Shown here: positions 13,612-43,900 of the stretch, in pieces
Position numbering within the stretch: the stretch's first letter is position 1
How the letters are laid out: each line of letters opens with the position of its first letter
Source: Cyanophora paradoxa CCMP329
Lineage: Eukaryota; Plantae; Glaucophyta
Direction: 5' to 3'
Length of the DNA stretch: 64,000 nucleotides
Assembly: GCA_004431415.1 (NCBI GenBank)
Contig: QPMI01000445.1
Location: 1 to 64,000 of the forward strand
The notes under the pieces: generated by a model
The model's database searches: none
Seen by the model: the letters and a program-made list of their open reading frames with translations, nothing else
Told to the model about the DNA's origin: nothing
Made by a program: the position numbers and the translations under genes

Positions 13612-14394
13612 TTATAAACCGCGTTTATATCGCATCAATTTATTGCTATGGACTTGGCTTTTCACTTCTTTAGGGGCTTCCTCTTTCTCTGGTGGTTTCA
13701 GTTCATCTTCTTTCTTCTTGGGCTTCCTGTGGAAGCGAGGAAAATCGAAATCTCCAACTAAATCGGCTTTATCAACATAGTAGCCCACATTATACTTGAA
13801 AGATGTATAAACAAGGAACTGGTATGAGTGGACATACTCTTCAAACAGTTTATAGAAATCTTCTTTTCGAGGAAATGTCGAAAACTCCTCTGCAAATGCT
13901 TCCAGCTCTTTTTGATTGCTTGCACAAACCATAATTACTATATCACTATTGCAGCGAATTACACTTGCAACCTTTCGTAATTTCTGAGAGATAGTTATTA
14001 TTGATATATTCACATGTCTGCCACGAACATAAAGCATTCCAACTGTTTTATCTCGACTGAGATCCAGCTGGTCATTTTCTATCATATCCTCTAAAATCAC
14101 CAGCATATGGTTAAGTTCTTCTCCTTTCTCCCTTTTTGCCTCTCTTTCTTTTATAATTTTCGACATGTATTGGGGATCCCATGCACCCAGTTGAACAGTA
14201 GCAGCTTTGTCCCAGAAATGTGAGAATGAGGTAGCGGATATAATAAGGGTTGTATCAATCTTTTTGGCATCATGCAGCTGTTTCAAATAATATTTTACAG
14301 CTTCTGTTTTTCCGCATCCACTTTTTCCGAGTATGAGTAGTCTGAAAGGGGGTTCTATCATTTCACCAGCATTAAATTCTTCCAGATCTTGCAT
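13612..14394 (-). CDS. A32-like (FtsK/HerA) DNA packaging ATPase
   Basis: GKSGCGKT, LVILEDM, RGRHVNISIITISQ, IRCN. Confidence 0.93.
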   Translation of the reverse strand: MQDLEEFNAGEMIEPPFRLLILGKSGCGKTEAVKYYLKQLHDAKKIDTTLIISATSFSHFWDKAATVQLGAWDPQYMSKIIKEREAKREKGEELNHMLVILEDMIENDQLDLSRDKTVGMLYVRGRHVNISIITISQKLRKVASVIRCNSDIVIMVCASNQKELEAFAEEFSTFPRKEDFYKLFEEYVHSYQFLVYTSFKYNVGYYVDKADLVGDFDFPRFHRKPKKKEDELKPPEKEEAPKEVKSQVHSNKLMRYKRGL

Positions 14395-16431: not shown

Positions 16432-17364
16432 ATGAACCGGCTCGTTAATATTGATAGCAGGGATAGAAGCCAAGGACAAAATGAAAACTCTTACAGGGTC
16501 ACCCTCACAACTCCAGTAGAGAGACCAAGGGAATGTAGGGTTCTCTATGCAGAGATTCCAAACAGTATCTATAACAGTGTGGGAACTGATCATCTAACAG
16601 TTCAGTTTAATTACCAAGATGGTTCATATAACCAAGTGATCACACAACAAGTGTATCCCCTTCCCAGTGGCTACATCAATCAGGGTCATTTTGGGGTCAC
16701 ACACCCTTATAATTATGGGCTGAACTATTCAAGCTTCCAAACTATTGCAGGCAAAACAGTAGCTTTTGAGTTCAAGATATTCTACAACCCAACAACCTAT
16801 AAAGTGGAGTTTTACAGTAACCATGAGTTTCGTTTTATTGCAAGCAACCAGAGAATAGGAAAGCTTTTGGGTGTAAGTTCTACTGAATACACTAATGGGT
16901 ATTATAGCACTCCTCCTGTTGGTGGATCTCCATATCGACCTGAGAACCTTTTAAAGTATGATGGCAAACCTATTACACCTGATCACCCAGCATGGGGAAT
17001 CACCTTCTCAGGACCCAGACTCTCCTCTAAGCCCTTGCAATATTATTTTGACAGCAGGAAGATGTCTGATATGAATGCTGAGCAGTATCTGTACATGCAT
17101 ATTAAAGAGCTGTCCCCCTTTGCCAGCAGACACAATATAATTCCAAAATCGCAACCACAAAACCAGGGAGCTATCCTTAGATTGCAATTGAGTAAAGATA
17201 TAGGGGGCTATGTTTACCATAGTGGTGAACATGCAGAATTTATTCAAATCAATGACAGAAACCTGGTGATAAGGGAACTCACAGTTGAGTTTAAAGATTA
17301 CTTTGGTGAACTGATTGATATGAATGGAATCGATAATTCTTTTCAGTTGGAGTTTATCGAATAA
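16432..17364 (+). CDS. Minor capsid (penton) protein 2
   Basis: IDSRDR..SYRVTL..AEIPNSIYN and LTVEFKDYFGELIDMNGIDNSFQLEF. Confidence 0.87.
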   Translation: MNRLVNIDSRDRSQGQNENSYRVTLTTPVERPRECRVLYAEIPNSIYNSVGTDHLTVQFNYQDGSYNQVITQQVYPLPSGYINQGHFGVTHPYNYGLNYSSFQTIAGKTVAFEFKIFYNPTTYKVEFYSNHEFRFIASNQRIGKLLGVSSTEYTNGYYSTPPVGGSPYRPENLLKYDGKPITPDHPAWGITFSGPRLSSKPLQYYFDSRKMSDMNAEQYLYMHIKELSPFASRHNIIPKSQPQNQGAILRLQLSKDIGGYVYHSGEHAEFIQINDRNLVIRELTVEFKDYFGELIDMNGIDNSFQLEFIE

Positions 17365-18910
17365 AGGCACCTGTGAAATCAACTCTCATTGTGGGAGCAT
17401 TCACATACACAAGGGGATAAATGCGAATATACTTGATTCTGAGAGAAAAACCTATGTAAAAAGCATCCTTGATGCTGAGAGGAAATCCACTCAATAAAGC
17501 AACATCACCTGAGTTGTGAGCATTGTTAATGTTCTCACAGACATATATTTTGTTCTGCCCATCTGATCGAATAAAAGACCAGTTGATCCCATCAGTGGAT
17601 GTTGCCACATTGAAAGTCTTAATAAAAGCATTGGTGTCCCCTGAACCATAGGCAATCACAGAAGAGAGTTCGAAAGTATATGGGAAAGCAACTTGAAGGT
17701 ATTCAGTGGGGGTTTCCCATATCTGCTCAGGAGCATAGGCTCCAGCTTCCCAGCCAAATGCTGAAGGTCTAGCCATGAAAGGCTCTTTACCTGTCACAGA
17801 GGATGAGGCAGTGAAGGCATCATCTGCAAGCTGATACCAATTTGCATCCAAAGGAGGTGATGTAGTGAGAGTGGATGATATGTAAGCCTTTGAAGGGTTC
17901 TTTAATTCATAGTTTGCTACTAGAATGCTGCAAAGCTTATTAATCATATCATTGTTAGCTGCTATGTAAGTTTCAGTGAAAGAAAGCATATCTGGGATCT
18001 TAGATGTGTCATCAAGGGAGCTTACTATGTGATTTGGAAGAGGGACTGATAGCCTGTAATATCTCCCATAATCCTGATCATAGTTGTAGGGTAACAACTC
18101 CTCCATCTTATCAAGGGCAGAAAGCTCACTTGCAGCCATGAGCATGTTAATCAATGGGCTTCCATCTGTTGAGGCAATCCATGAGAGAATGCCCCAGCTG
18201 TTTACAGTCTCATAAGCATAACCCACATAATCAGACTCTAAATGTGGGTCCACCTCTCCACAAGAGATGCTTATTACTATAATATCATCATCATCACTGT
18301 AAATCTTCTTTGCATGGCTGTAACCACACACACTGGGATTATTGTTTCCCGAAATGGCACCATCAATGAGACAGACATATACTCCCCGATTGAAATCAAC
18401 AATGCTTACAGGAGAGAAATATGTAGGAGCAGCAGAAGTAGCCCTGGCAGCAATCTTACAAGGCATAAAGTTGTAATTGTTGTCATTTGTGATAAATATT
18501 GGTTTCATATTCTGAGTATCAAAGGATGTAATCACAATGTCTTTTAGGGAATCCTGTATGAGTGATTCACCAGTAACTGAATTGATTGCAGTCTCCAAGG
18601 GTCCGACATCATACTTTGTATTAAAAAGGGCATTTTCGATTATATTTCGAGGATTTGCGAAAATCAAGGGCAGTTGAGTTAGGTAAATATTGTGTAAATC
18701 GTTTGCTGTGAGTTTAGGTTCACCTGGTTTATCAGGATGCCTTATATTCAAACCTATTGCAATGATCCCACCAGTGGAAGTTCCACTCACAAGATCCACA
18801 AGATCGATTATTCTCCTGCCAGTTCGATTTTCGATTTCTTTGAGCAGCCTGGTTATGATAATGCCCCTTGCACCTCCCCCTGATAAAGCTAAAGCGACCT
18901 TGAGAGGCAT
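17354..18910 (-). CDS. Patatin-like phospholipase fused to an F5/8 type C (discoidin) domain
   Basis: GGGARG, GTSTG and DGA motifs; C-terminal EYLQV..FNVATSTDGINW..KYIRIYP..MRVDF. Confidence 0.9.
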   Translation of the reverse strand: MPLKVALALSGGGARGIIITRLLKEIENRTGRRIIDLVDLVSGTSTGGIIAIGLNIRHPDKPGEPKLTANDLHNIYLTQLPLIFANPRNIIENALFNTKYDVGPLETAINSVTGESLIQDSLKDIVITSFDTQNMKPIFITNDNNYNFMPCKIAARATSAAPTYFSPVSIVDFNRGVYVCLIDGAISGNNNPSVCGYSHAKKIYSDDDDIIVISISCGEVDPHLESDYVGYAYETVNSWGILSWIASTDGSPLINMLMAASELSALDKMEELLPYNYDQDYGRYYRLSVPLPNHIVSSLDDTSKIPDMLSFTETYIAANNDMINKLCSILVANYELKNPSKAYISSTLTTSPPLDANWYQLADDAFTASSSVTGKEPFMARPSAFGWEAGAYAPEQIWETPTEYLQVAFPYTFELSSVIAYGSGDTNAFIKTFNVATSTDGINWSFIRSDGQNKIYVCENINNAHNSGDVALLSGFPLSIKDAFYIGFSLRIKYIRIYPLVYVNAPTMRVDFTGAFIR

Positions 18911-18953: not shown

Positions 18954-21900
18954 ATGAGCTTCAATTACCCACCAAATCTAGAAACCATTCAAGATGATAA
19001 TGCAAGCAGCACCAAGCATGTGAACTTTGATAATATTAAAGTAAAGGGTTCAGTTTCAATTGACCACAGCTCTGATAATTCATCAAAGACTCAATCAAGG
19101 GAGCATGCTTTATCTGTGAATCAAACCGATCCAGATAAAGAGGAGGTCAGTGTTGCTTTTAGTTTGGGTAATGTGAAAGCAAACCAAGTGGCAGAGATCA
19201 AAGCAACAAGAAGGAGACCTAGGAAACTAAAAACCAGTGGCACTCACCCAGATATACCTTCCAGGTTCGATAGTGGTCGATTGATTTTCAATGTTCAAGA
19301 TGAGCAGGGCAAACAGAACACAGCTTTGCGAATTTACAATGAGGGCAGCACTCCAAAAGCTGAGGTCCCCCAAGTATTGCAAGTGGGTCCCATTGCCAAT
19401 ACAAATCAGGTCTCCTACACAAATGATGTCTACCCTAAGGATATTACATATGACTTTGCAAGAAATGAGCCTTTTGGTTTCTTTACTCCAAAAGATGTCC
19501 ATCAAAAAAAGCCATCAATTACAATCAACAGTAGCCCCAGTCAACCAGTAGCAATCCATTTACATCCTGATTTAGTCGAAATGGATAGGCACCTTTTGCC
19601 TTTGTATAGCAATGTGAAAGACCTTGGAATTCGAACCAGGCAATGGCGAAATATCCATGGCAGTAATGTGTATGCAAATGGTGAGAAGCTTGTTAGTGAG
19701 AAAACCCTAAGAGAAATCATTGAGCATTATGGTCCCAATGGACCTACTGTCCCATTCCCTATTCCATTTCCCAATGGACCTCCCGATTTAACACCAAAGA
19801 AGCAGCCTGGAAGAGAATACACAGCAACTGAAGATGTAGCCTTTGGGCAGCACATTGTTAGTTGGGAGCAAGTTCGCAATAAACCTATAATTGAACCCAG
19901 AAAGCAAATAGATGAGCAGTATTTACCTCCTGAAATCGATATATTAGAGCTTGATGAATATCAATTCGTTCCAGATGAGGAAGAATATTTACCAGATGGT
20001 TTTGACCCACAAGAATATGAATACGATCAATATGATCCCAATGAGGAGGAGATACTACCAGATGGCTTAGATCCACAAGAGTTTGAGTATGAGCAGAACT
20101 ATGAACCTGATGAGGAGTATTTGCCAGATGGTCATGATCCACCAGCTGTTGACTATGAGCAACCTTATGAACCCCATGAGGAATTGTTACCAGATGGATT
20201 TCGACCTGAGATCTGGGAGTTCTTTCCTGATTATGAACAAATTAATAATAAACCTGCAAAGTATCCCCCAGAGGATCACAATCATGATTGGGATGAGATC
20301 TTAGGCAAACCTCAAAAGTATCCACCAGAGGATCACAGGCATGATTGGGGTGAAATTGATGGGATTCCAACTGAGTTCCCACCAAGCAAACATGAACACA
20401 CTTGGGATGAGATTAATGACCAACCAGAGTTTGCAAAAGTGGAGCCTTTGGCAACCCTAGGGGTTTCTCTTTACCAGACTTGTAATATCCCTGAAAGAAT
20501 CTTTTTGAATGAACACTATGTACATGTGAATGGGACACTTGCAAATTCAGCTATGAGAGGACCACTTCATATTAGGACATTACCAGGCTCTTATAATCCA
20601 CCACCTGAACCAGGAGCAACCATACCAAATATCTTTGTGTCAAGCTACATGGAGGCTGACATTCCCACAGATACATTCAGAGTCCCAACAGACCCAGCAA
20701 CCTACCAAAATTACAACTCTGCTATACAGGTTCATGTAGCAGATGTAAGCAGCTTAGATGGCTCAAGACCAATGATAGTTTTCAGTCGAGATAAGTATTC
20801 CTACATTCCCATAGTGGGAACTGCAAATGATAATTATGGAAGGGCAGAGCTTGCATGGATTAAAACAGATTATGGTGGGGTTCTGGAAGCCAATCAAAGA
20901 ATGGCTGCAAAAAACATACACAATGAGAGCATTTCGAGAGTAGTCACAGAGGATTACCTTCAAGCTCAGAACTACATAGATGAAACAGAACTAAATACAA
21001 TCATTGCAGGTATAGGTATTGGTGTTACAGGCAATTACCTCCCTCTCACAGGTGGGACTATTGATGGAACAGTAACAGCATGTAACTTCTTTGTCCATAC
21101 TGAAAGCAATCAAACCTTTCCTGTGGTTCATCCAGGAGGTGAGTATGAGATACCTGATGATCCAGCTATTATGCCCATTAAGATTGATCTCCCTTCTGAT
21201 TATGTAGGAAGGGGTGAACTAAAGACCATCTCTTTCACAGGAGATTATAATGATCTCATAAATAAACCTACTGCTGCAAATCTGCATCCTGTTGCATTTT
21301 CGGGTAGTTTCCTTGATCTAAATAATAGATCACACACCCACACAAAGGCAGAAATCACAGATTTTGCACACACTCACACCAAATCACAAATTACAGATTT
21401 TGCACACTTCCACACAAGAGCAGATATCACAAATTTCGCTCACACTCATGTTAAATCAGAGATATTAGATCTCGGAAATGTTGCATATGTGGGTCACACC
21501 CATACCAAGGCAGAGATTACAGATCTTGGAAATGTTGCATATGTTGGTCACACCCACACAAAGGCAGAGATTACAGATTTTGCACACACTCATGATTGGA
21601 ATACAGATATCTATAACAAACCTGCAATTTTCTCAGGAAACTACAATGATTTGACCAATAGACCAACTCTTGATCCTTTCACAGCCACCACAATCAGAGC
21701 CAACAACACAATGTATGTAGGATCAGGTCAGATTGTAGAACCAGCAGGACCTATGTTTGAAGAAACATGGTTCTTCCACAATTCGCAGAATTACTTTGAT
21801 AAAACCTTACTTGTTCGTGGAAATGCCTATGCAAGAAATTTCTATGCTATGAACCCCTCAAATAATGCGACCATCAGTCGATGTATTACAGAGGCAGATC

Positions 21901-22214
21901 TTTCCAGTCAACTCAATGCATATTTTAATGGGAAAATCCAAGCAGGAACGTATGTTTACACTACTCCTTATCTTTGGGCAAATCCTGACCATAGGTTTAA
22001 CCTCACTATTAATTTCAACAGCAGCTTTGCTAACCCTCCTATTGTAACAACTGGTATACAACACAATGAGACAGCCTACTACTATCGAATGTATGTTAGG
22101 CTTAAACAAGTTTACAGTAGCTATTTCACTTGTGAGCTTGACATAGTTCCATTAAGTTCTTTTGACAGACCAGGATTTCCAGTTACAATTCATTACATTG
22201 CTGTCGCAATTTAA
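18954..22214 (+). CDS. Large phage-tail-fibre-like virion protein (1086 aa)
   Basis: Acidic EEYLPDG repeats; PPEDHxHDW and HTHTKAEITD repeats; FSGxYNDLxNKP motifs; lectin-like C-terminus (INFNSSFANPPIV). Confidence 0.8.
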   Translation: MSFNYPPNLETIQDDNASSTKHVNFDNIKVKGSVSIDHSSDNSSKTQSREHALSVNQTDPDKEEVSVAFSLGNVKANQVAEIKATRRRPRKLKTSGTHPDIPSRFDSGRLIFNVQDEQGKQNTALRIYNEGSTPKAEVPQVLQVGPIANTNQVSYTNDVYPKDITYDFARNEPFGFFTPKDVHQKKPSITINSSPSQPVAIHLHPDLVEMDRHLLPLYSNVKDLGIRTRQWRNIHGSNVYANGEKLVSEKTLREIIEHYGPNGPTVPFPIPFPNGPPDLTPKKQPGREYTATEDVAFGQHIVSWEQVRNKPIIEPRKQIDEQYLPPEIDILELDEYQFVPDEEEYLPDGFDPQEYEYDQYDPNEEEILPDGLDPQEFEYEQNYEPDEEYLPDGHDPPAVDYEQPYEPHEELLPDGFRPEIWEFFPDYEQINNKPAKYPPEDHNHDWDEILGKPQKYPPEDHRHDWGEIDGIPTEFPPSKHEHTWDEINDQPEFAKVEPLATLGVSLYQTCNIPERIFLNEHYVHVNGTLANSAMRGPLHIRTLPGSYNPPPEPGATIPNIFVSSYMEADIPTDTFRVPTDPATYQNYNSAIQVHVADVSSLDGSRPMIVFSRDKYSYIPIVGTANDNYGRAELAWIKTDYGGVLEANQRMAAKNIHNESISRVVTEDYLQAQNYIDETELNTIIAGIGIGVTGNYLPLTGGTIDGTVTACNFFVHTESNQTFPVVHPGGEYEIPDDPAIMPIKIDLPSDYVGRGELKTISFTGDYNDLINKPTAANLHPVAFSGSFLDLNNRSHTHTKAEITDFAHTHTKSQITDFAHFHTRADITNFAHTHVKSEILDLGNVAYVGHTHTKAEITDLGNVAYVGHTHTKAEITDFAHTHDWNTDIYNKPAIFSGNYNDLTNRPTLDPFTATTIRANNTMYVGSGQIVEPAGPMFEETWFFHNSQNYFDKTLLVRGNAYARNFYAMNPSNNATISRCITEADLSSQLNAYFNGKIQAGTYVYTTPYLWANPDHRFNLTINFNSSFANPPIVTTGIQHNETAYYYRMYVRLKQVYSSYFTCELDIVPLSSFDRPGFPVTIHYIAVAI

Positions 22215-27098: not shown

Positions 27099-27344
27099 TG
27101 GGTTTCTATAATGATAAACAGGGTAATTTACCTTTTTTATTACAATGGCAATCGTTAAAAAAGGATATAATATATCCTTTCCTACAATAGCTTTCTACAA
27201 TGATTTTCTTTCTACAGTAGCTTTTGTTACAATAGAATTCTACTGTATGATGTAGCCGAAATATGAATGCACCCTACATTAAGCAATGTCAAGTATTTCG
27301 AATACTATTCGATTTCCTTACAATAACACTCAGCATCTCCCCTT

Positions 27345-28161
27345 GATTCCCCCTATTATATTATATTTATATTTAAGTGGACTCAAGGTTGACTCATATT
27401 AATCGTAAAAGTAGTAAAAGTATATGGATTTTGTTACGAATTCAATGGGAGGGTTGACTAAGTGGGTTGAGTTGACTCAAATTTCACAGGAAATATTTGG
27501 GACCTAAAGTTTTCTAAAAAGGATTTGAAAAAATGTGTCAACTCCCCCCACTTAGTCAACCCTGACCATAAACAGTAAGGATTTGAGCTAACATGTATCA
27601 CAAAGTGAACATTTTGAGTCCACTTAGAAGATCCACTTTTGAAATCCAAGTTGATTTTGCTTGAAATTTCAAAGTTGATCTAAAAGTGAGTCCACCCTGA
27701 TTGATTATGGTAACAAAGTTGACTAAGTTGACTAAGTTGAGTCATCTTAAGAAATTCAAAGAGACTAAGAGTTCAAAATGTTTATGAAAAGTGAGTCAAC
27801 TTAGACCACTTATGATAACAAAGTTAAATATTTATTTGATTTAATCGGAAAAGAACATGATTTAATCGAATTTATTGATATAATTCCGATTAGATTCATT
27901 TAGGATTCAATTAAGATCAATCGAAGTTATTGATATAATTCCGATTAACTACAATTAAGATACAATATCGATTAATCGAGTTTATCGATATAACATCGAT
28001 TAAATTAATTGAAAATGCATTTACAAATATGAAAATTCATGTGAAAATTCAAATAAATTAATCGATTTTATTGATATAACATCGAATCACACATATGAAT
28101 ATTCATATTTTAATCCTGAGGCGGAACGCCGAGGGATTAAAATATGAATATTCATATGTGT
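27345..28161 (-). repeat. Right terminal inverted repeat (817 bp)
   Basis: Mirror of 1750-2565; ends ...CATATGTGT, followed by the TSD GGCGCA. Confidence 0.96.
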
Positions 28162-30068
28162 GGCGCAAAATCTCTTTCTCGCGATTGTGCACGAAGAGAA
28201 CGCAAGGGTGCCTCTCAACCTTTCCATCGATATCACGAACAATCGCAAGTCAGCCGCAGATTACAAATACTGATCATATGCATGCTGCCGATGAATTCTC
28301 GAGATCGCTTACCCGCTCGTCAAGCGTGTTCTTCTTCGCCGTCTTGCCAATGCGCGATGGATTACCGAAGACGATGAATCGATCCGGAAGGTCCTCGTGC
28401 AGCTTCTCGGCGACAGAATCAACAGCCTTGTTCCTCTGCTCGACCGGTTCGCAGTCAAAATCATAGATCAGTTAAAACGATAAATGATTAATATATGCGC
28501 GCGCGCATATGCACCGTGCACGTGACATGAACTCGTTCACTCAAGGGCACGCGCTGCTCGATGATGGACACGATTGTTGTGCTGCACGCATGCGCAGCTG
28601 ATTAAATGTCGTGCTAGCACTCGATTCATGATCACGAGTGCTATAGCTAGTGCTAGTGCCGCTGTACCTTTTTCCAGTTCCGGGAGGCCCTGCTTATCCA
28701 AAATTAAATCAGAACGCAACTTCAACGTCTGAATGTGAATCCGCATGCGCACCTTGGATGGACTCAAGATTGTACCGAAGACCCGACACGGCGGTCCGCT
28801 GCGAGGCGTTCATGCGAGCGGCGATGTGGCCGGCGTGCGAGTTCTCAGTCCAGCTCCCAAGAATGTGCTTGGAGGGGTTGATGACAGCGGAGATCAGGCT
28901 TTGGTCGAACGTGACCATGGGACCTGTATAGACCGGAGCGGCATGATTGGTGTGGAATAGCGGCGTGAGCGAGCTGTGAAGATGCGAGGTCTGCAGACGG
29001 CGAGGGCGGTCGCGCGCGGCGACCCCGCCGGCCAGATCGTTGGCCGCCTGATACTCGCGAACGTAGCTCCCAACGAAGCCCAGAGCCGTGGCGGGGAGCG
29101 GGCTCAAACCGAGGACGGACTCGAGAGACGGCTGCACGTCGACCCGGACCTGCGACAATTTCAGCTTATAATTATCCGCGATCGGACGGATTATATATAA
29201 TTATTTCTTCCAAAAGAACAATCGAAAAGCACCGTCGTGTCCTCGCGTTCGGTGTACGGGTCACGGCTGGTGGTCCGCGAGCGCTCGCGAGTGACGGCAT
29301 ACAGCCGCCGACCAATCACAAGAATGGACTGGCCGAAGTTCGCGAGGGGGGAGTCATTCTGCATGCAGAACAGAAACGTTAAAATATATTGATGGGAGAA
29401 GTTCTAATTACATATAAGGAGAGCCCCGGCCCCTGCACCTCGGAAGAGGATTCTCGCGATTGCTGATCGCGGTCATTTGTCGTCGACGCCGCGGACTGCG
29501 AGAAGGAGATGATGATGCCGCGCTCTTCTCCGTTCCCCCGCGACCGGTCATCCCAAGTGAGCTCTACCTCCGGAAACCGCACGCTCGCCCCGGAAGAAAG
29601 GGCGCCCCGTCCGCTGCTCTGACGATCGACGTGTTCTGCGTAGGGCTGTACATTTACACAGTGTTAAAAAGGAGCCCAAGAGACATCGCAATCGCATTTG
29701 CAAGGGAGACAAGTACAAACCTGGACCACTGCCGCGTAATACTCGGCGAGAATGTTGTTCGCGAGAGCTTCGCCGTACGCTTTTTCGCTATCGGGTCTCC
29801 GCTCGATCATCGCCAACTTCACAGGACCCTCTACGGTGAGAAAGGGCTCCCACATATCGGGGAGCGATCCGGGATTGTGCGGCTGCGGGCGCCAGCGCGG
29901 CCCGTCATTGAAGCGGTGGCTGCTGGAATGGCCAGAAGATGCGGAGTAGGGACGTGAGCCGCCGAAGCCGCCGCGAGAGCCGTAGCCGCCGCTGCGCGAG
30001 CCGTAGCTGCCGCCGGAAGAGCCATAGCCACTGCGGGCGCTACGCGGAGCCCACCCGCTGCGGTTCAT
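28162..30068 (-). CDS. Host SF1 helicase, 5' part (G/S/R-rich N-terminus, Walker A GPPGTGK), multi-exon
   Basis: GPPGTGK is encoded near 28670-28690. Removing the element and one TSD copy restores the frame ...VHNREKEILR|LLKCTDTRIKELM.... The start at 30068 (MNRSGWAPRSARSGYG) is tentative. Confidence 0.75.
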
Positions 30069-32175: not shown

Positions 32176-32354
32176 CTGCGACCTTGAGCTCGATGACTTG
32201 CTCTACCCCCCCTTCTTGGGTCGAAGCTCTTTTTGGCGGCGGGCCCCGCAGATGCAGCTGGTGCGTCTCACTGCTCTAGGCAAAACCCGTCCGATTCGCC
32301 AGTGACCACCGGCGCCGTCGATCGCAGGTCGATTGGGCGGTCGCCGCGCTCGCT

Positions 32355-34258
32355 ATGGGCGCATACGTGCGTTGACCGCCGTGCCGGCCGAGCGCGCTGC
32401 AAGCGACCGAGCTCACCGACAAGCCGCCCGCAGATCGCCCGGCGGCTGCGTGAAGGGGCCGGCGGCGGCCAAGCGGAGCGGGAGCTAGAGGCCGACGCTG
32501 GCGGTGCCGCGGCCGGCGCGGCGGCCCTCTCGGACGACGTGCTGCGGCTCGTCTTCGCGCACCTGTCGGACGACGCGCAGTCGCTCCTGGCCGCCTCGCA
32601 GGCCTGCCGCCGCTGGCGGGGCCTCCTGTCGCCCGAGGACGCGGCGTGGCGCGCGGCGCTGGGGCGGCAGTGGGGCGAGGCGGCGGCCGTGCACGCGGCG
32701 GAGGCCGAGGGCGGCGAGGGGCCGCTCGACCGCTCGTGGCGCACCGCCGTCGGCGGCGGCCCCGGCGGGACGGTGTGGAAGGCGCGGGCGCTGGCGCGGG
32801 GCCGGGCGCCGCACGCGCACCACGACGCCTTTCAGGCGGAGCTGGCGCGCGCCTGCGGCCGCCTCGCCGGCTTCCGCCTCCGCCTGCGCCTCGGGCCGGC
32901 CGCCGACGACGAGGGGCGGCCCGAGGACGGCTGCGAGGCCGACTGCGGGCCCGGCGCCTGGCGCGCCCACGCCGACTCCGTCTACGCCTCCTTCCCCCTC
33001 CCCGCGCCCTTCGTCCAGTCCCCCGCCTTCCGCTCCGGCGGCCTCCTCCGCGGCGCCCTGTACCCCCTCCCCGCGGGGGGCGCCCCCCTCCCGCCCGCGG
33101 CGGCCTTCTCGGCGCCGGTGTACCCCGGGGCGAGCACGGCGGAGCTGTGCCGCGGGGATTGCAGCGGGGCGCTGGTCGTCTCGGGCGATCGCGAGGCGGA
33201 GGCGGCAACGGTGCACCTGAGCGCCCACGGGCACCTCGTCCTGCGCGCCCTGCGCGGCGAGGCGCCCCCGCCCGCCGCGCCCCTCCCGCCCCTCTTCGGC
33301 GCGGCGGCCGCCGAGGACCTGGCCGAGGCGATCGCTGCGGGGCGGCCCGGGGACGCCGCCCCGCCGCCGCCGGCCGCGCCCGGCCCCGCTGCCTGCGCTG
33401 GTGGGAGGCCCCCTGGCCCCGCCCGGCGCCCCCGCCGCCGGCGAGCCGGCACCGCCGCCGGCCCCGGAGGAGAGCGAGGGGCCGCAGGAGGGCGGCCTCT
33501 TCGACCTGCTCGCGGCGCAGCTGGCGCGGGAGCGCGCGCGGCGCGCCTCGCCGCCCCGCGCCTCGCCGCCCGCGCCGCCGCCGTCTGGGGGTACACCCTC
33601 TACCTCGCGTTCCGGCCGGACTGCGGGGCGGCGGCGGCGGCCGGCGGGTGCGGCTGGGCGGCGGGCGGCTGGAGCGCGCGCCTCCGCCTCGCGGACGCGC
33701 TCTTCTCCTACGACCTCTCCTCCTACCTCGCCTGGCGGTGCGAAGTTCAAACTCGAAATCTTTCACCGCCGACGCGGGGGCAGGTTTGAGGTGCCGGCGG
33801 AGGATGCGCCGCGGGCGGGCGGGGCGGGCCCGCTGCGCTTCCCCTTCGGGTGGCACCTGCGGGACGCGACGCTGTACGGCGGCGGGGGCGAGCCGCTCCT
33901 CCTCTCCGCCAACGCCCCCGTCGTCGTCTCTGGCCCCGTGCGCCCCGCCCGTCCCGCCCCGCCCACCCGGCCGCCAATTCTTACAAGCGAGCAGCAGGGG
34001 CCGGGTGGGGCGCCGGTCTTCGCGGGGACCTTCTTCCTGCGGGTGGACGCCCCCGCCTCGGGCCCGCCGTCGGGGGCCGCCCCCGGGGCCTGGTGGGCCC
34101 GCACGGTGGCGGCGGTGCGCTACGAGTGGGACGCGGCGGCGGGGGCCGGCGCCGGGGCCCTCTGCCTCGAGCTCCGCGCCATGCCGGCCCTCGTCCACGC
34201 CCTCATCGCCCCGCCCGGGCCCCGCCCCCGCGAGCTCGACCCCGAGCTCGAGGCGTGA
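32355..34258 (+). CDS. F-box protein (C-terminus weakly FBXO15-like), multi-exon, start uncertain
   Basis: LSDDVLRLVFAHL..SLLAASQACRRWRGL F-box motif. Confidence 0.65.
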
Positions 34259-34327
34259 GCGGCGCGATCGCGATCGATGCAAGGTTTCAATGAAGCACTA
34301 GGACTAGTAGTGTACAGGGCGAGCGAA

Positions 34328-37300
34328 CTACCAGGCGGGAGCGGCTTGCCCCGCGGCGGGCCCCGGGGCGGGCGGGGGGAGGCCGAGGGTGCGGGCGCGG
34401 AGGGCGGAGAGGGCGCCGGCGAGGCGGGCGGCGACGCGGCGGGCGTCGGCGAGGGCGCAGTGGGGGAAGTCGGCCTTGGCGCGCCCCGGGGCCGCCTCGG
34501 CGCCCCGCTCCGCCGCCTCCTCCCGCGCCCGCCGCTCCGCCGCCACGCGCCGGTGGAACTCGCACCGGTCCTCCTCCCGCGCCGCCGGCCACGCGGGGAG
34601 CCTGCGCGCGCGCGTCTCGGGCCGGGGCCGGGGCGGTGCGGTCGGAGCGCGGGGCGGGGCGCGCACGAGTCGCGGGGTTGAGGCCGAGGAGGGCGCAGAG
34701 GGCGCCGAGGAGGGCGTCGGCGTCGACGAGGGGCGGGGCGCGCGCCTGCGGGCGCCCCGCGCGCCCCGCGAGGAACCGCAGCGCCTGGGCCTCCGTGCGG
34801 GGGTCCTTGGCGAGGAGCAGGCAGGCCCCCGGGGCGGGCGGGCGGGCGGCCGGCCAGCCCGAGGCGGCCGCCAGGCGCTCCCAGAGCTCCTCGGGGGCCG
34901 CCCCCCGCACGCCGGGCGGCAGCTCCTTGTAGGGGATCCCGTGCACCTGCCGCCCCGCCTGAGACAAGCACAAGGGGGGGGAGCTCGAAAGGGGTACACC
35001 TTCTTCCAGCGGTGGTTGGCGGAGTGGTGGGCCTCGGGGCTCTCGGGGAGCCAGGGCCCCGCGCAGAGCAGCGCGTGCTCCTCCGCCTCCGCCTCCGCCC
35101 GCACCGCCCCGCCCCCGCCCCCGCCCCAGGCGCGCAGGCGGAAGCGGGTGGCGCCGGCCTCGCAGGGGAAGGCGACGCGGAGGCCCCCCGGCCCCTCCGC
35201 CTCCCCCGCCGCCTCGAAGTCAAGGGCGAGCAGCGGGCCGGCCGCCACCAGCGCCGCGTCGGCCGCCGCCTCGTCCCGCGTCCGCACCGCCGCCGCGAGC
35301 ACCGTCGCGGCATCCTTGCACAGGTCCGCCGTCTCCTGCGCCGTCGCCTCGGGGATGGCCGGCGGCTCGGCGCGCACGAAGCCGGGCGCGGGGCGCCGCC
35401 GCTGCAGCTCGGCCGCCTCGCGCGCCGCCGCCTCGTCGCGCTCCTCCGCCTCCGCGAACGCCGCCGCCCCGCCGGCCGCCGCGCTGGCGGCGCCGCCGAT
35501 GCCGTAGCCGCGCTGGCGCCAGCCGGGGACGGGGTCGGCGAGGAAGGCGTCGAGCTCCTCCGGGGTGCGGGACGGGTCGAGGCGCCCGCCGTACTCCCGC
35601 GCGAGGCACTCGTGCACGAAGTACCCGAGCGGCGTCCACTGCAGGCCGCACGCGCAGCCGCCCGCACCCGCCCCCACCGAACCCGCCGGGGGCGGGTCGG
35701 GCTCGCAGAGCATGGCGGAGACGCCGGCGGCGGCGGCGAGGGCGTCGGCGAGCCAGTTGCGGTCGCGGTTCCACTCGAAGTCGCGCTTCGTCTCCGGCGC
35801 GAGCGCGGCGCGCAGCTCGTCGGCGGCGAGGCCCCCGAGGACTTGCGAGGCGTCGCGGAGGGGGCGCAGGAAGTCGAGATTCGCGTAGCGGGCGCGCACG
35901 ACGGTGGCGCGCGCCGCGGCCGTCTGGATGAGGTCGAGGGCGCCCGGGCCGGCGGCGGCGCCGGAGCGGAAGAAGGCGGCGTAGGAGTGGTACGCGACCG
36001 CGAGCTCGAGCGCCGCGTCGCCCACGAACGCCAGGCGGCCTGCGCGCAGAGGGTTTCGGCGAGGCGAGGCGAGCCGAGGCGAAGACGAGGCAAAGCAGGG
36101 GCGCACGGTTGTCGTAGGGGATCGCCGGGCGCCGCGCCTTCCGGAAGTGCGTCGCCGCCTGCGCGGGCGCCGCCGTCAGAGGCCGCGCGGGGCGGGGCGG
36201 GGCGGGGGCGGGCTGCGCGGACGGCGGTGAGGAGGCGTAGGGCGTCTTCGGGCGGCTGGCCCCCGAAGCAGAGGGCGCTCCAGAGCTCCCGCAGCACGCC
36301 GGCCTCCTCCGGCCTCAGCCACTCCGCCCCCGGCACCCGGTCTGCCCGCCGCGTCGGCCTCGGCTTCGGCCTCGGCCGGCGGGGGCGCGCGGCTGGGCGT
36401 GCGCGCGCACCGGCGCCGGTGGCGGCGAGGGCGGCGCGGAGCTGGCCGGGGGCGTCGAGGGCCTCGGGCAGGGGCCCCGCCTCGCGGCCCCGCAGGGCCA
36501 CCTCCAGCACGCGCCTCAGGGACGGGTCCAGGTCCTCCCGCCTGCGCCGGCGCGGCCGCCGCTCGCTCAGCGCGGGGGCGCGGCGCGGCGGCGGGCGGTC
36601 AAGGCGCGCCGGGAGGCGGGGCGGATGACGTAGCGGGCGGCGAAGGCGCGGCAGGCGGGCAGGCCCGAGTCAAGGTACAGCGCCCCTGCGCGCCGGCCGT
36701 CGGGCGCGGCGGGGAGGGCGGGCGGGGGGACGGGGGGCGGGGCGCGCCTGCGACGGCCTCGAGGGCGTCGGCGCGCATCGCCTGCGAGACGGCCTGCCGG
36801 TCCGCGCAGCGGAGGGCGCGGTCGAGCCCGAGGGCCTCCGCCGCCGCCGCCAGGCTCTCGTTCGAGACGCACTCCTGCGCGCACGCGCCGGCAACGTCAG
36901 CCGTCGCTCCGCTTCGCTTCGCCTGGCTGCGGGGGACCTCGGTGGCGGTGTGGAGGGCGAGGGGAGTGGCGTCGGCGGGGCGGGTGTGGTCGACGAGGGT
37001 GCGGCGGACGGCGTAGCGGAGTACGCGGTCGCCCAGGAACTCGAGCGCCTCCCCGCCCTGCTCGCCCCCGCACGCCGAGCTGTGCGTCAGGCTCGCCTCC
37101 AGCGCCCCCGGGTCCCTCAGCCGCAGGCCCAGCTCGCCCTCGAAGGCGGCGAGCACGCCGGCGAGCGCCGCGGCGCGCTCCATCTCGCGGCGGGCGCGCA
37201 GGAGGGCGGCCCCGAGGGCGTGCATCTGGGCGGTGAGGCCCGTCGGCACCCGCAGCGTCTCCGGCGCGTACACCGCCGCGTTCGCGCCCCCGCTCTCCGA

Positions 37301-37966
37301 GTAGGAGAGCGCCACGGGCTGGTTGGGGTCCTGCCGGGCCGGGCGTCAGCGCGAGGCGCTGGGCGGGGCGGGGGGGAGAAGGGCGCGCCTCGAGGACGAC
37401 GTTGCGGGGCTCCTCGGCGAGGTACTCGGCGAGGGTCACGCGGGGGCGCACTCGGGCGCGCCCGGCCGCCTTGCGGGGGTCGAGGGCCTGGACGGGCACG
37501 AGCTGCGCGCCCTCCTCGGCGCGCGTGCGGTACGTCGTCACGGCCATCGAGTCCTCCAGCATCTCCCGGAGGCGCGCGTAGCCGCGGCCCCGGCCCTCGC
37601 GCAGCGCCGCGAGCACCTCCTCGGGCCCGTACGAGTGGGCGCGCGCCGCCGCGAGGAGCGCCGCCGCGTCCTCGTCGGCGGCCTGGCGCCCGTCGGGCAG
37701 CGCGAAGCGCGGCCACAGGAAGCTCTGCCCGCGGCGCGTCGACGGAGGGGGGGCGGAGGAAGGGGCGGCGGGGCGGGGGCTGCGCACGTCGGCGATGAGG
37801 GCGCGGCCGTCGTCGTCCTTGGTGAGGGCGGCCGGCCAGCGCGGCATCGCCCCGCGCTCCGAGGGCGCGCAGGCCTCCCCGAAGAGGTTGTTGAAGTCCG
37901 CCAGCGCCGCCGCCGCCTCCTCGTCGAACTCCTGCGCGCGCGGCGCCGGGCGGTCTTAGAGGGGGA

Positions 37967-37998
<32 letters not shown>

Positions 37999-40900
37999 CG
38001 GCGCCTGGGGGCCGAGGTACTCGACGCGGATGTCGACTTCGAGGGGCCCGGCGGGCCCGCACAGGCTCCCCTTCAGCGCCGTCGCGAAGCGCAGCGGCCG
38101 CCGCCGCGTGTACAGGTCGTACCTGCCGCGGCGGCGCGTCAGGGAGGAAGGAGAGAGGACGCGGGCGGGCGGGGCGGGACGGGCCCGTCGAAGGCGGAGG
38201 CCTGGAGGTACTCTCGCGGGCGGCGCGGAAGGGGCGGGTCGACGGTCACGCGGTGCCGGTGCAGCGTACCCCGCCGCCCCGCCCCCGCGGCGCTCGAGGG
38301 GGCCGACGAGGCCGCCATCGGCGCCGCGACCGGGGGCGCCGGTACCGGGGCCGGGATCGCCGCCGCGGCCGGAACGAACGCTGGGGCTGGGGATGGGGCC
38401 GGGAATGGAGCCGCGGCTGGAACGAACGCTGGGGCTGGGGCCGGGATCGGCGCCGCGGCCGGAACGAACGCTGGGGCCGGGGCCGGGATCGGCGCCGCGG
38501 CTGGAACGAACGCTGGGGCTGGGGCCGGGATCGGCGCCGCGGCCGGAACGAACGCTAGGGCTGGGGCCGGGATCGGCGGGGCCGGGAGGGTGCGGCTCGG
38601 CCCGCCTGTCGTCATTGCAGCAGCTGCAGCTGCCGCAGCGGCGGCGGCGGCAGAGGCGGCCTGCGCGGCGGCTGGGGAGTAGCGAGGAAGGGGCGCCAGG
38701 GCGGGCGGCGGGCGCGGGGCGGCGGAGCCGTCGGCCAGCAGCGCGCTTAGAAGCTCCTCCTCCTCCGCGGGCGGGGCCGGCGCGGGGGCCGGCCGGGCCG
38801 CGCCGGGGCCGGGCCCAGGGTGCCCCTGCGGTGGCGGCCCGAAGAAGCTGAATGCCGGGGTGGCTTGCGCGGGCTGCGCGAGGGGCGCAGGCGCCCCCCA
38901 CAGGGGCGCCGAGGAGCCGGCGGGCGGGAGAGCCGTCAGGGGAGCCGGCGCGGAGCTGGCCGGTGGCGAGGGCCGGCCGGCGGGAGTAGACAATACAGCG
39001 GCCAGGGCGGCCGGGTTCGGAGGGGGGTACGCCGGGAGCGCCGGGGGGCGGTACGGCGCGGCCGGGCGGGGTGCGGGGGGCGCGTAGGGCCGCGGCTGCT
39101 GCGTCGACGCCGACGGCGGCGACGAGGCGGGGACCGGAGCGAGGGCGGGGATGGGGAGCGGGACAGAGGGCGGCGCATAGGGCAGGGGAGCCGCAGCCGA
39201 TGGGGCGGCTGGGGGCGGATAGACGAAGGGGACGGCAGGCGCGACGGGCCCCGGGGCGTGCGACGGCGCGATGGGATGGATTGGGAAGTGCCCAGCGGGA
39301 GGGTGCGCCGCTGCCGGGGGTAGAGGGTACGCCGCGGGAGGGGGAGGCGCGACGTAGGCAGGCGGAGGGGAGGGAACGAGGGCGGGGATCGGGAGGGGTA
39401 CGGCCGGAGCGGCGGGGTACGAGGGCGCCGCCGGCCAGGAGGCCGCTTGCTGAGGGACGAAAGGGGCGGGATAGGGGGCCGGGGCAGGGGCGGCGGGGGC
39501 GGGCGAAGGGGCGGGGACCGGTGCAGCGTGGGTGGTCCACGCGGCGGAGTACGCGGCTGGTGGTGGCCGCGGGGCCGCTTGCTGGGCAGGGTAAATGGCG
39601 GGAGGGGGGGCAGGTGCAGGGGCGGCGGGGGCGGGCGGCGGGGCGGGAGCCGGAGGGGCGGGGGCGCTCCGGCCGCCGGCGGCCGGGTCGCCGCTCTGAA
39701 CAAAACGCTCATCGGGCGCGCTGCCCTGCGGCGGGCCCGGCGGGTCCGCAGCCTCCGAGCGCGGCTCTTTGATCTCGCGGAAGTTCCTCTGCGGGGCGCC
39801 CCGGGCCGTCAGCTCGGGCGTGGTGCCAAAACCGTCTTTCAGGGGCCGGGCGCACGATCCTGAGGACGGGGCGGGGCCCGTCCTCCTCGTCGCTCGCGGC
39901 GCCCAAGTCCAGCGCCGCCGGCGCGCTCGAGGATGCGTCCGGTTCGGAGGGGTCCGGGGCGCCGCCCCACGCCTCCAGCATCCTGGGCCCCGCCTGCGGC
40001 CGCCGCTGCGGGCGCGGGCCGGGGCGGCAGCGGCCGTCGAGCGCCGCGAAGATGTCCTTCTCCGCCTCCTCCGCCTCCTCGGAGCGCGGGGAGGACTCGC
40101 CGGAGGACGGGTCGAAGAGGATGGCGGGGCCGTCGGGGTCGTACCCCATCCGCCGCTTCCGCTCTATCTGCTTCCGCCGCTTCTGCTCGATGTCCTCGCT
40201 CACCGGCACCGCCCGCCCTGCTCGCGGGATCCGTGAGGGCGCGGCGGGGCGGGGGGTCGGCGGGGAGGGGCGGGGGGGCACCGCCCAGGTCGGGCCCGAG
40301 GCCGACCTTGGGGGTCCAGCCGTGGCTCTCGAGGTGGCGGCGGGCGAGGGCGTGGGCGTCCCGCGGGGCCGGCGGCGCCTCCAGCTCCCGCTCCAGAGCC
40401 GCTAGCCCGTCTCGCGGCCGAGGCACCGGCCGCAGCCGCGCCAGCCAAGAGGTTGGCTTCGGGGCCGTTGGCGGAGCGAGGCCCGTTGCAGCCGCGTCCA
40501 CAGCAGGCGGAGAGAGCGGGGGAAGAGCAGCGTTTGGAGGAGGCAGGGGCGGAGCGGCGGGCGGAGCGGGCGCCGCTGCAGGGGCCTCGATGGCGTCCGG
40601 CGGGGGAAGAGGCCGGGTCCACGCGAGGGCCGCTGGCTGCGATAGAGCGAAAGCTGGGGCCGTCGTGAGCCCGATCGAAGGCGCCGACGAAGCGGAGTCG
40701 TGGGCGGCCGTCCAGGCGGCGGTAAGCGGACGGGGCGGGCCGGACGAGGAGGAAGAGGAGGGGGTGGAGGAGGCGCCCTCCGCGCCGGGCGACGGGTGCG
40801 GGCCGGGATCGCGGGGCTCGAGGTGGAGCCGTTGGGGCGCCTCCGCCTCGAAGAGCATGGCCGGCCAGCTCCCCTCCGACCCGCTCGAGCCGCCCTCTGC

Positions 40901-43900
40901 GCCGCCCTCGCCCTCGCCGCCGGCGTCGTCTTCGCCCTCCGCGGAGGGCTCCCACCTCGCGGCGCCCCCCTCCAGCCCGGAGCCGCCCTCCTCCTCCTCC
41001 TCCTCGTCCTCCTCCTCCTCGAGCGCCCGCCCTCCGTCGGCGTTGTCGGACTCCCCGCCGGCCTCCGGGGTCTCCCCCGCCGCCGTCTCGGCCCCGGCCC
41101 CGCCCCCCGCGAGCAGGCGGGCCAGGCTCTCCTGCAGCATCCGCCTCGCCTCCTCCGCCTCCTCCTCCTCCGCCTCCCGCGCCGCCGCCACCTCCACCTC
41201 CTCCTTGTCCTCCTCGGGGCCGCCGCGGGCGCCCTGGCCGCCGACCCTCAACTTCTCCTCCTCGTCCTCCTCGCCGTCGCGCCCTCCTTCGCCGCCGCCG
41301 CCGACGCCGTCCGACCCGCCACCGGCGCCGTCTGGCGTGCCGCCGCGCTCGGAGCCGCCCTGCCAGCCGCTCTCCGAGCTGGTGCTGCCCTCCGTCTCAC
41401 CATCGCGAGCCGATTCGCCGGCTTGCTCCGGCCCGCCGCCGGCGTCGTCATCGCGCGGGGGCTCCGGGGCGGCATTCGCTGCTTCGGGGGCGGCGGTCGA
41501 GGCGAGCAAGTCGGGCCCCGCCGGGCTTGCGGCCCTCCCGGCTGCAGGGGCGGCCTCCTCCGTGACGGGGGCAGCGGGAGGCTGTTCTGGCGGGCAGGCC
41601 GCGGCGCCGATGTCGTCGCGGGTGTCAGGAGCGCCGCCGGCATCGGCCGCGCCGTCGGCGGCCTCCTCGCGCAAGGCCGGCGCCGGCCCCCGAGCTCCGC
41701 CGCCGGCGCCTCGCGGAGGGCCGCCGCCGCCGCCGCCGCCTCTGCGGCACGGGCCACGGCTTCGGCGAGCGCCTCCTCCACAGCCGCCTCCACCTCCTCC
41801 GGCGAGGGGCCCGGCCCCGCGCCCGCCGACCCCGCCTCCCGCGCGGCTTCTTCTCCGCCGGCGCTGCGCTGAGCGGAGGCATCGGCCGCGAGCTCCTCCT
41901 CGATCTGATCGGCCTCGCCGGCCGCCCCCGCGGGCGCCGGCGCGGCCCGAGGCCGGCGCCCCCCCCGCCGCACCAGCGGCTCCTCCTCCTCGTTCTCCTC
42001 CTCGGGCGGCGGCTCCGGGAGCCCGACGCCAGCGCCGCTCACGCCACCCGCGCCGAAGTCCCGCGCGCGGCGGCTCGGCAGCCCAACGCCGGCGCCGCTC
42101 TCGCCGGCTCCGTCCAAATCGCCGTTGGCGTCAAAGAAGCTACCGCCAGGGCCTCCGTCGGGCTCGGCGCCGCCCGCCTCCTCCTCCTCGTCGCCCTCGC
42201 CCTCGCCGTCGTCGAGGAGGCCGTAGTCCTCGTCGTCCTCGGGGATGCCGGCCTCGCGCAGGAAGGCGAGCACCTCCTCCCGCTGCACCCGCCGCAGCGC
42301 CCGCATCATCTCCCGCCGCCTCGCCACCTCCTCCTCCATCTGCCCCGCCCGCCCCGTCGGCCCCCGCCGGCGCACTCGCGGCCGGCCGGCCGGCCCGCGG
42401 GGCGCGCGCACCTCGATGCTCTCGTGGATGGCGAGGACGCGGTCCCGCTCCTCGGCCTCCTGGGCGCTCGCCTTGAGCGTCTCCCTCAGCTGCCGCTCCT
42501 CCTCCTCCGCCGCCCGCCGCTCCTCCTCCGCCGCCAGCGCCAGCTCCTTCGACTCCTCGAGGATCTGCTGCAGCTCCTCCTCTGTCGGCACCCGCCAATC
42601 GTCCTGCGCCGGCGCCTGCGCCTGCGCCGCCGCCGCCCTCGCCCGCGCCTTCTTCGGCCTGCGGGCGCGCATCGGGGCGGGAAGGCCGGAGCGCCGGCGC
42701 CCGCCGGGGACGCACAGGGGGTCCACGGGCAGTGCGGAGAACGCCGAGGGCACCCCGAGCTCCTCGATGCCCCGGTTCGGCCTCAAGCGCCACTGCGCGC
42801 GGCGTGAGCTGCACGGGGCGGCGCGGCGGCGGCGGCGTCGGCGACGGGGCGCACGTCTTCGACGCGGCCGGCGGCGCGGTGGGGCGGGGCCAGGCTCGGG
42901 GAGGGGAAGGGGGCGGCGGGGTCGGGGTCGGGCTCGCGGGCGCGGGCGGCGTCGGCAGCGTCCTCGAGGAGGAGGAGCTCGGAGAGGCAGGTGACCTCCT
43001 TGGACTGCTCCAGGGCGAGCCGCAGCTCCTCCTCCTCCTCGGCGTCCCGCCTCGCCTCCTTCAGCGACTGCCGCAGCGCCTTCGCGAGCTGCGCGTCCCC
43101 GTCGCCCCCCGGCGCCACCCGCCGCCGCCTCGCCTCCGCCTCCGCCGTCCTCCGGCTCTCCACCTCCGCCGCCTTCAGCGCGAGCTCGATCGCGTCGACC
43201 TCGCCCCGGCGCGGGGCGGCGGCGCCCGCCGCCGGGCCCTGCCGCGCGGTCCCGGCTGTCGACGGCGGGCGCCCGCGGGCGGGGCCGGCGGGGGCGCTGC
43301 GCTCGAGCGGGGCGGTGGGGCGGCGCCCCTCTCCCACATGGGCGGCGGATTGGGCGCCGCGCTCGGTCGCACCGGAGCGGAGGAGCGGCCGGCGGCGGGG
43401 GCGCCCGGCAGAGCGGCGGCGGAGGACGAGGAGGGGAGATTGGGGGCAGCCGGAGGGTACGCGGGAGCCGGCGCTCGGGGGGCGGCGGGCTGGTAGAAAG
43501 AGGGCGGGGATTGCTGTGCAGGGTGTGTGGAGGGCTGTGATGCGCCGTGGACGGGCTGCTGTGGGACCGCCGCGGCGGCTGGCTGGGCTGGGGCGGAAGA
43601 GGCGGCATAGTGCGGCGCGGCGGTGCCAGAAGCCAGAGGGACCTGAGCCGGGGGAGGGGCGGCCGCGGAATGCGCAGGGTACGAGGCCGGCGGGGCTGCC
43701 GCCGGCCACGCAGAGGGCGAGGGCGACGAGCCGGGCGCGGGGCCGGGCGAGGGGCCGGGCGCGGGGCGCTGTGGGGGAGCGACGGGGCCCCACGCGGGGA
43801 GGGAAGGCGGCTGCGGCACGTGCACGGGCGGCGACTGGGCCGCGGGGCGTGCGGAGGCGGCTCCGGCGAGGGCGGCGGCGGCGGCCGGGAGCCCGAGGGC

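Follow-up and report, generated by a model that had tools for sequence, protein, structure and literature searches.

A minus-strand gene of Cyanophora paradoxa CCMP329 encodes two ribonuclease III (RNase III)-like domains in tandem, the first intact by its catalytic residues (domain a) and the second degenerate (domain b). It lies in a stretch of 64,000 nucleotides (GenBank assembly GCA_004431415.1, contig QPMI01000445.1, positions 1 to 64,000 of the forward strand), and this whole stretch is referred to below as the window. The gene is expressed, and both domains are carried on one processed transcript. The asymmetry between them is real and expressed, and is not a sequencing error. On balance, we favor the reading that the intact domain and the degenerate one form an intramolecular pair with a single active site, which would cut one strand of double-stranded RNA (dsRNA) per binding event.

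Gene model and transcript support

The exon model was derived from GT/GC-AG borders and the reading frame. It contained at least 13 exons, with 11 internal exons plus the first and the last, and the product as modeled was about 1,075-1,175 aa.

34328-38615, minus strand: whole RNase III gene, with the first in-frame ATG at 38615 (the second at 38318) and the stop at 34330-34328
Ending at 38185, minus strand: first exon
38122-38005, 37931-37788, 37724-37389, 37330-36938, 36874-36748 and 36685-36610, minus strand: internal exons
36541-36411, 36341-36223, 36158-36107, 36039-35000 and 34946-34667, minus strand: internal exons, continued
34601-34331, minus strand: last exon

Since the two RNase III-like stretches lie in different minus-strand frames, the gene must be spliced. 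The frame switches were seen serially in the third-position G+C from 38.2 to 34.3 kb. The spliced frame was open and stop-free across 939 codons, with a G+C of 0.82, 0.58 and 0.98 at codon positions 1, 2 and 3, respectively; the residue numbers given here are positions in this 939-aa frame. The 12 introns were each 53-73 nt long with a G+C of 85%, and their borders were GC-AG in five cases (mostly G/GCGCGCC, the slash here and below marking the exon end) and GT-AG in seven. This intron number is far above the 1.67-1.89 introns per gene given for Cafeteria (PMC6972860; here and below, papers are cited for the excerpts of them that were available).

The stretch was present in 20 public runs. None of them is recorded as RNA and six were guessed to be RNA, and contigs were compared from three of these six (X15, X17 and X19, from three studies). 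As the RNA assignment of these three runs is a guess, weight was placed solely on what their contigs bridge. Contig sets from DNA were compared as well (X1, X2, X6, X11 and X14). In all three RNA-type runs, a minus-strand contig fell into pieces that ended at modeled exon ends. Record 8 of X15 (3810 nt, minus strand) consisted of the pieces 38184-38439, 37388-37724, 36937-37329, 35137-36038, 34674-34943 and 34000-34601, of which 38184-38439 was colinear with the genome. Positions 854/855 of this record joined 37388 straight to 37329, and the lengths absent between its other pieces were 198, 393, 53 and 64 nt. The corresponding modeled introns sum to 198 nt (62+73+63), 393 nt (63+62+68+69+64+67), 53 nt and 65 nt, and the 198 nt absent between 38184 and 37724 equal the three introns of the region of exons B-D. 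The mismatch of one base at the last junction arose because a C is missing from the run 34677-34674 of the window; the extra base was present in all five DNA contig sets, and once it is restored, the frame carries across the last junction into the last exon, which is strongly periodic.

The junction 37388/37329 and a record gap of 505 nt from 36937 to 36038 were also found in X17 record 12 and X19 record 17, and the DNA contigs were colinear straight through the introns. Among the junctions, 37388/37329 was seen directly, and the remaining ones rest on the length arithmetic and the matching ends of the pieces. No alternative letter was found anywhere in the gene in any of the eight contig sets, including the Ala codons GCG at 36031-36029 and GCC at 35737-35735. 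The preliminary description of this DNA, made from the letters alone, had claimed that domain b carries Ala at both catalytic Glu positions and had proposed a check for Glu codons in reads or cDNA; none appeared, the three RNA-type and five DNA contig sets all having the same letters.

The window was one base short at two homopolymer runs, at 34673 and at 36380, in comparison with all five DNA contig sets. The deficit at 34673 disrupts the frame at the last exon junction of the RNase III gene, and the one at 36380 is within an intron. Both deficits are probably assembly indels.

Domain a has a complete set of catalytic residues

36535-37156, minus strand: RNase III domain a, residues 259-401, in exons 37330-36938, 36874-36748, 36685-36610 and the start of 36541-36411

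The signature of domain a, G-G-E294-A-L-E297-F-L-G-D301, was located at 37057-37028 (codons of E294, E297 and D301 within 37051-37028). Its second motif, A-D367-A-L-E370-A, was located at 36772-36755 (codons of D367 and E370 within 36769-36758) and reads ADALEAVAG/ALYLD after splicing. The five carboxylates E294, E297, D301, D367 and E370 are the equivalents of E37, E40, D44, D107 and E110 of Aquifex RNase III. The Aquifex enzyme coordinates its two Mg ions with E40, D44, D107 and E110, of which E110 (equivalent to E117 of E. coli) is described as functionally essential (PMC3867540).

Pfam recognized Ribonuclease_3 (PF00636) in the unspliced open reading frame (ORF) of domain a at E 6.7e-9, with a score of 36.9 bits where the cut-off is 27. 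A bacterial RNase III profile hidden Markov model (HMM) matched residues 259-401 without a gap at either intron, with 105.6 bits and E 1.3e-34, a score somewhat flattered by the choice of the 120 bacterial RNase III proteins behind this custom HMM for their likeness to domain a. In an alignment with 40 bacterial proteins, domain a kept all the invariant columns (L-T-H-S, L-E-F-L-G-D and E-A) and the nearly invariant Asp of DxxE. Its identity was 33-42% to 39 of these 40 sequences and 29% to the fortieth. A phmmer search against the PDB paired EALEFLGD of domain a with ETLEFLGD of Aquifex RNase III, and a close-range protein search returned bacterial RNase III only (about 220-260 aa, best E 4.9e-5). 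The bacterial proteins were used as a reference profile and not as relatives. As judged from the aligned residues, domain a has a complete catalytic site. Its description as intact was borne out by the full E/E/D/D/E set and by Pfam and HMM scores far beyond chance.

The 21 residues that intron 36937-36875 would encode (VPRSQ...ACAQ) were considered as a part of domain a and rejected, since the contigs and the bacterial alignment marked this segment as an intron: the residues would form an insertion missing from all 40 aligned bacterial RNase IIIs.

Domain b is a degenerate second domain

35972-36237, minus strand: N-terminal half of domain b, residues 478-522, LLTAAATH...YDN/RRLAFVGDAALELAV
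35708-35821, minus strand: C-terminal half of domain b, containing two stretches that may correspond to the D107/E110 helix

The N-terminal half of domain b begins in the last part of exon 36341-36223, takes in exon 36158-36107 and, past intron 36106-36040, continues into the first part of exon 36039-35000. Its signature, N499-R500-R501-L-A503-F-V-G-D507 at 36110-36017, is contiguous only once the 67-nt intron 36106-36040 is removed, and the codon of R500 is split across this intron. The preliminary description had quoted NRRLAFVGD, a string that exists only in the spliced form, and the splicing it implied was correct, as the intron-less contigs agree. All four motif strings that it had quoted were found on the minus strand, within the interval it had assigned to the RNase III pair, and in the spliced frame they stand in GGEALEFLGD, RADALEAVAG/ALYLD, YDN/RRLAFVGD and WLADALAAAAG.

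In the gap-free HMM alignment, R500 and A503 (GCG, 36031-36029) occupied the positions of the two signature Glu residues (E37 and E40), and D507 was retained. Domain b also retained the T-H, L, F and G-D residues together with the hydrophobic pattern. The custom HMM gave its second match at residues 478-522, where LLTAAATHFRKARRPAIPYDNRRLAFVGDAALELAV was aligned with aLLerALTHsS...neRLEFLGDrVLglvva at 14.4 bits (E 1e-6 at Z=1). The 182-residue segment of domain b scored 18.9 bits with the HMM, and none of 2000 shuffles was as good, the best of them reaching 11.0. Ribonuclease_3 was the sole Pfam family on domain b, at E 0.03-0.06 and 14.6-15.5 bits, which is under the cut-off of 27. In the ESM Atlas, the best score of the domain b exon was 0.76, under the lead level, and an RNase III cluster stood at rank 4. 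These profile comparisons showed the N-terminal half of domain b to be RNase III-derived at the level of aligned residues, with R500 and A503 in the places of the signature Glu residues.

Two candidates for the second motif were found in the C-terminal half. Candidate 1, AAD573-E-L-R576 (AADELRAAL) at 35821-35810, follows the MAFFT placement, and its distance from the signature Asp is 66 residues, exactly as in domain a. Candidate 2 is WLAD598-A-L-A601-AAAG at 35755-35723, with LADALAA at 35752-35732. In a search with a position-specific scoring matrix (PSSM), WLADALAAAAGVSAML was the top position among 134 tried; like domain a, it has a Gly seven residues (+7) after the Asp. The protein as a whole is 22% Ala. 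No DxxE occurred within residues 470-678. Since the E110 position is without a Glu in either placement and DxxE is absent from this range, the description of domain b as a domain without a canonical active site is independent of the placement.

Remaining parts of the protein and the upstream frame

38187-38615, minus strand: exon A, Pro/Ala-rich N-terminal region
37389-38122, minus strand: exons B-D, N-terminal ~200 aa without a recognizable family
36238-36534, minus strand: linker between domains a and b, residues 402-477, in exons 36541-36411 and 36341-36223, without a Pfam family
34331-35707, minus strand: C-terminal ~420 aa without a recognizable family, in the rest of exon 36039-35000 and exons 34946-34667 and 34601-34331

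The preliminary description had proposed that an exonuclease is fused to the RNase III pair. No such family was found. At E ≤ 10, Pfam recognized RNase III only (in three of the 12 exon translations), and no exonuclease, PAZ, helicase, DUF283 or dsRBD. The 127 ORFs of at least 70 aa on both strands at 28-46 kb gave none of exonuclease, PAZ, helicase and dsRBD at E ≤ 0.01, and neither did 12 upstream minus-strand ORFs at E ≤ 1. The dsRBD part of the bacterial HMM had no match in the 939 aa, and exon D had no usable match in the ESM Atlas. About 620 aa of the product are without a recognizable family, and a very divergent nuclease fold is possible there.

Exon A contains a 42-nt tandem repeat of 5.4 copies at 38347-38578, encoding 14-aa PAPAFVPAAAPIPA-like units, and the contigs of all runs break at this repeat. 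In the frame of the first exon, which is open up to 40163, the only in-frame ATGs are 38615 and 38318.

Upstream, a 659-codon open frame of Pro/Ala/Tyr-rich low complexity was found at 38187-40163 on the minus strand, with no ATG, GTG or TTG before 38993. RNA-type contigs were colinear over 38527-39617, and the frame is transcribed at least over this range; it may be a 5' untranslated region (UTR), the 3' UTR of an upstream gene, or coding sequence entered by splicing. A further minus-strand ORF at 39842-42130 has long acidic and Ser-rich low-complexity runs, and no Pfam family was confirmed in it. It contains HGWTPKVGLGPDLGG, which we take to be a G-patch-like string; Pfam did not confirm it.

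Proposed mechanism and alternative explanations

In the mechanism that we favor, domains a and b would pair within one chain as a pseudo-dimer, in which domain b would serve as the partner surface and make up one half of the valley that binds the RNA. Hydrolysis would occur at the site of domain a only, giving one nick per binding event. A long, symmetric dsRNA could be bound again the other way round, and its second strand might then be cut as well. Asymmetric substrates, for instance hairpins or guide-target duplexes, would be left with a nick. Nicking of dsRNA is known from RNase III heterodimers in which a single site works (PMC3867540), and mutations in RNase IIIb of human DICER1 disrupt the cleavage of the 5' arm only (PMC6695490). 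By analogy, we infer that the protein may act as a nickase. A far-reaching extension of this idea is that an obligate strand-specific nickase serves as the small-RNA or antiviral dsRNA nuclease of the organism, cutting a single hairpin arm, or the target strand alone in guide-target duplexes, in a small-RNA route independent of Dicer and in a flagellate that coexists with giant viruses and integrated virophages; we regard this extension as improbable.

Several results weigh against the pairing of domain a with a domain b of RNase III origin, or against single-strand cleavage by such a pair. When a 40-sequence profile was compared with the domain b exon by hhalign, the match covered 22 columns at E 0.0022, with a probability of just 12.9%. 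BLASTP of domain a against domain b gave E 18, and phmmer of domain b against the PDB gave no RNase III match. The C-terminal half of domain b was not recognizable in the HMM test, where 75 of 2000 shuffles equaled its score, and Pfam assigned no family to it. For the second motif, 12,482 of 20,000 shuffles equaled the score in a 17-column PSSM. The two placements of this motif compete, so that the equivalent of E110 is A601 in one and R576 in the other. The claim that both Glu residues are replaced by Ala thus stood for the first Glu (A503), and for the second it is one of two readings, dependent on the placement, although Glu is absent in both. AlphaFold2, run on exon 36039-35000 as a single sequence, gave an unusable model with a mean pLDDT of 43.2. 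No PAZ, dsRBD, helicase or other RNA-binding or measuring module was recognizable in the protein, and therefore it is not a canonical Dicer and probably not a canonical Drosha. A homodimer formed via two a domains would restore two sites. In addition, phmmer of the domain b exon gave no match among 1.84 billion representatives, deeper homologue searches with the domain a exon at E ≤ 0.001 and E ≤ 10 gave no orthologue, and metagenome scans gave no relative. With neither an orthologue nor a paralogue in any collection searched, the Glu loss may be conserved or may reflect recent decay.

The homodimer is the basis of one alternative, in which two a domains would dimerize and make ordinary double-strand cuts, and domain b would be a duplicate that has decayed and is retained for a structural or RNA-binding role. 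Dimerization via two copies of one domain is known from bacterial RNase III and from Dcr1 of budding yeast. Domain a closely resembles the bacterial class 1 enzymes (105.6 bits), domain b is very divergent, and nothing seen requires one functional subunit per pair. However, the second domain of a tandem protein is present at a very high local concentration, and domain b retains residues of the signature helix, the helix through which the two subunits meet in solved structures of RNase III. The tandem protein RNC1 of plants has, moreover, been described as self-associating (PMC3867540). We consider the a-a dimer unlikely, while granting it a real chance. RNC1 is also the precedent for a mainly non-catalytic RNA-binding factor, as its tandem domains are silenced by active-site mutations and it supports intron splicing (PMC3867540). 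One of the two sites of the present protein is already lost, which fits such a role. Domain a nevertheless retains every invariant or nearly invariant residue of the 40 bacterial enzymes, including E297, D301, D367 and E370, a pattern expected from purifying selection on catalysis, and a purely RNA-binding function is in our view quite improbable.

It could also be that what is here named domain b is no folded RNase III domain, just the remains of a signature within a low-complexity linker, and that the protein is a single-domain RNase III with long tails. The C-terminal half that behaves like its shuffles, the Pfam scores under the cut-off and the low confidence of AlphaFold2 all fit this explanation. 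Against it, 45 residues align, with a gap-free core, to LLxxALTHxS...NERLEFLGDxxL at a level that none of 2000 shuffles matched, the GC3 (third-position G+C) of 0.96 shows that the stretch is read in frame, and helices were predicted throughout, though at low confidence. We give the single-domain explanation little credence. The full model of the preliminary description, in which the nickase carries a fused exonuclease for trimming the other strand or end, draws on nothing beyond the asymmetry itself, and with no exonuclease family in the exon translations or the neighboring ORFs, it appears highly improbable.

As it stands, the protein adds one to the divergent tandem RNase III proteins already known. 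If the single-site reading is true, it would be a natural monomeric, strand-selective RNase III, and would help to explain how structured RNA is processed in protists without a canonical Dicer or Drosha. It would also allow a comparison with the variant RNase IIIb domains of diatom Dicer-likes, for whose consequence the available excerpts of the literature give no measurement, and it could serve as a dsRNA-nicking reagent.

Genomic setting

The genes around the RNase III gene are eukaryotic, and the window is eukaryotic nuclear DNA. Its G+C is 34-41% at 2-28 kb and 73-81% at 30-44 kb.

30.5-32.0 kb, minus strand: RNase P Rpp40 subunit
32197-33786, plus strand: F-box protein

The RNA-type contig of the RNase III gene extended at least about 470 nt beyond the stop and entered the F-box gene, which is convergent with it, at the 3' end. 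The two transcripts either overlap or were merged during assembly (33864-34601).

A virophage- or polinton-like element, 26.4 kb long and intact by its looks, is integrated at 1745-28166; its G+C is 34-41%, in a host of 73-81%. Its terminal inverted repeats of ~840 nt (1745-2581 and 27329-28166) are 99-100% complementary.

4123-4764, in the element: rve integrase
5264-8380, in the element: protein-primed PolB
9029-11628, in the element: DUF5906/PriCT primase-helicase
13612-14394, in the element: A32-type ATPase
17354-18910, in the element: patatin-like lipase
18954-22214, in the element: large lectin/tail-repeat ORF

The element resembles the low-GC endogenous mavirus-like elements (EMALEs) of Cafeteria, the genome of which has a G+C of ~70% (PMC8547959, PMC6972860).

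Comparison with known systems

Lopsided RNase III enzymes have been recorded before in other protists, and the preliminary description made the idea look newer than it is. For Cafeteria and the bicosoecids, the literature searches gave no paper on either RNase III or Dicer. The RNase IIIb of diatoms (DCR1 of Phaeodactylum tricornutum and DCR of Thalassiosira pseudonana) varies in both motifs, ExxGD and DxxE, and natural departures from these motifs are also described for Naegleria DCR3, Albugo DCL2 and the Trichoplax DCLs (PMC4791657). The present protein shares with the diatom Dicer-likes a tandem RNase IIIa-IIIb arrangement without the helicase/DUF283 set; the protein searches gave no eukaryotic relative. 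P. tricornutum has a dsRBD before its two domains (PMC3145265), whereas none was recognizable here.

As in Dicer, two RNase III domains stand in one chain, the second of them degenerate here; a PAZ/platform, a helicase/DUF283 set and a C-terminal dsRBD were not found by Pfam. Drosha has tandem RNase III domains followed by a dsRBD, and an N-terminus rich in Pro and in Arg/Ser. The present gene has tandem domains and an upstream Pro/Ala-rich open frame, and no dsRBD was found by Pfam. Short architectures around two RNase III domains, as here, are described for diatoms as well as for Giardia, Trypanosoma brucei DCL1 and Tetrahymena DCL1 (PMC3145265). The enzymes of Giardia (with PAZ) and Tetrahymena (with dsRBD) and T. 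brucei DCL1 are reported as working dicers, and no dead domain is stated for them in the available part of that paper (PMC3145265).

Natural losses of the active site in a tandem RNase III protein are known from chloroplast RNC1 of plants, which is silent in both domains (PMC3867540), whereas domain a of the present protein is complete by its residues. The closest analogy in mechanism is offered by the trypanosome editosome, in which one active domain and one non-functional domain (KREN1-3 and KREPB4/5) are proposed to pair, so that the pre-mRNA is cut and the guide is spared (PMC3867540). The KREN and KREPB domains are on separate polypeptides with zinc-finger and PUF modules; here the two domains are in one chain, in which Pfam did not find such modules. 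In DICER1 RNase IIIb hotspot mutants and in engineered E. coli heterodimers, one half-site lacks its carboxylates and single-strand cleavage is left (PMC6695490, PMC3867540). Those are mutations or constructs, whereas the gene described here is a natural one, identical across the contig sets.

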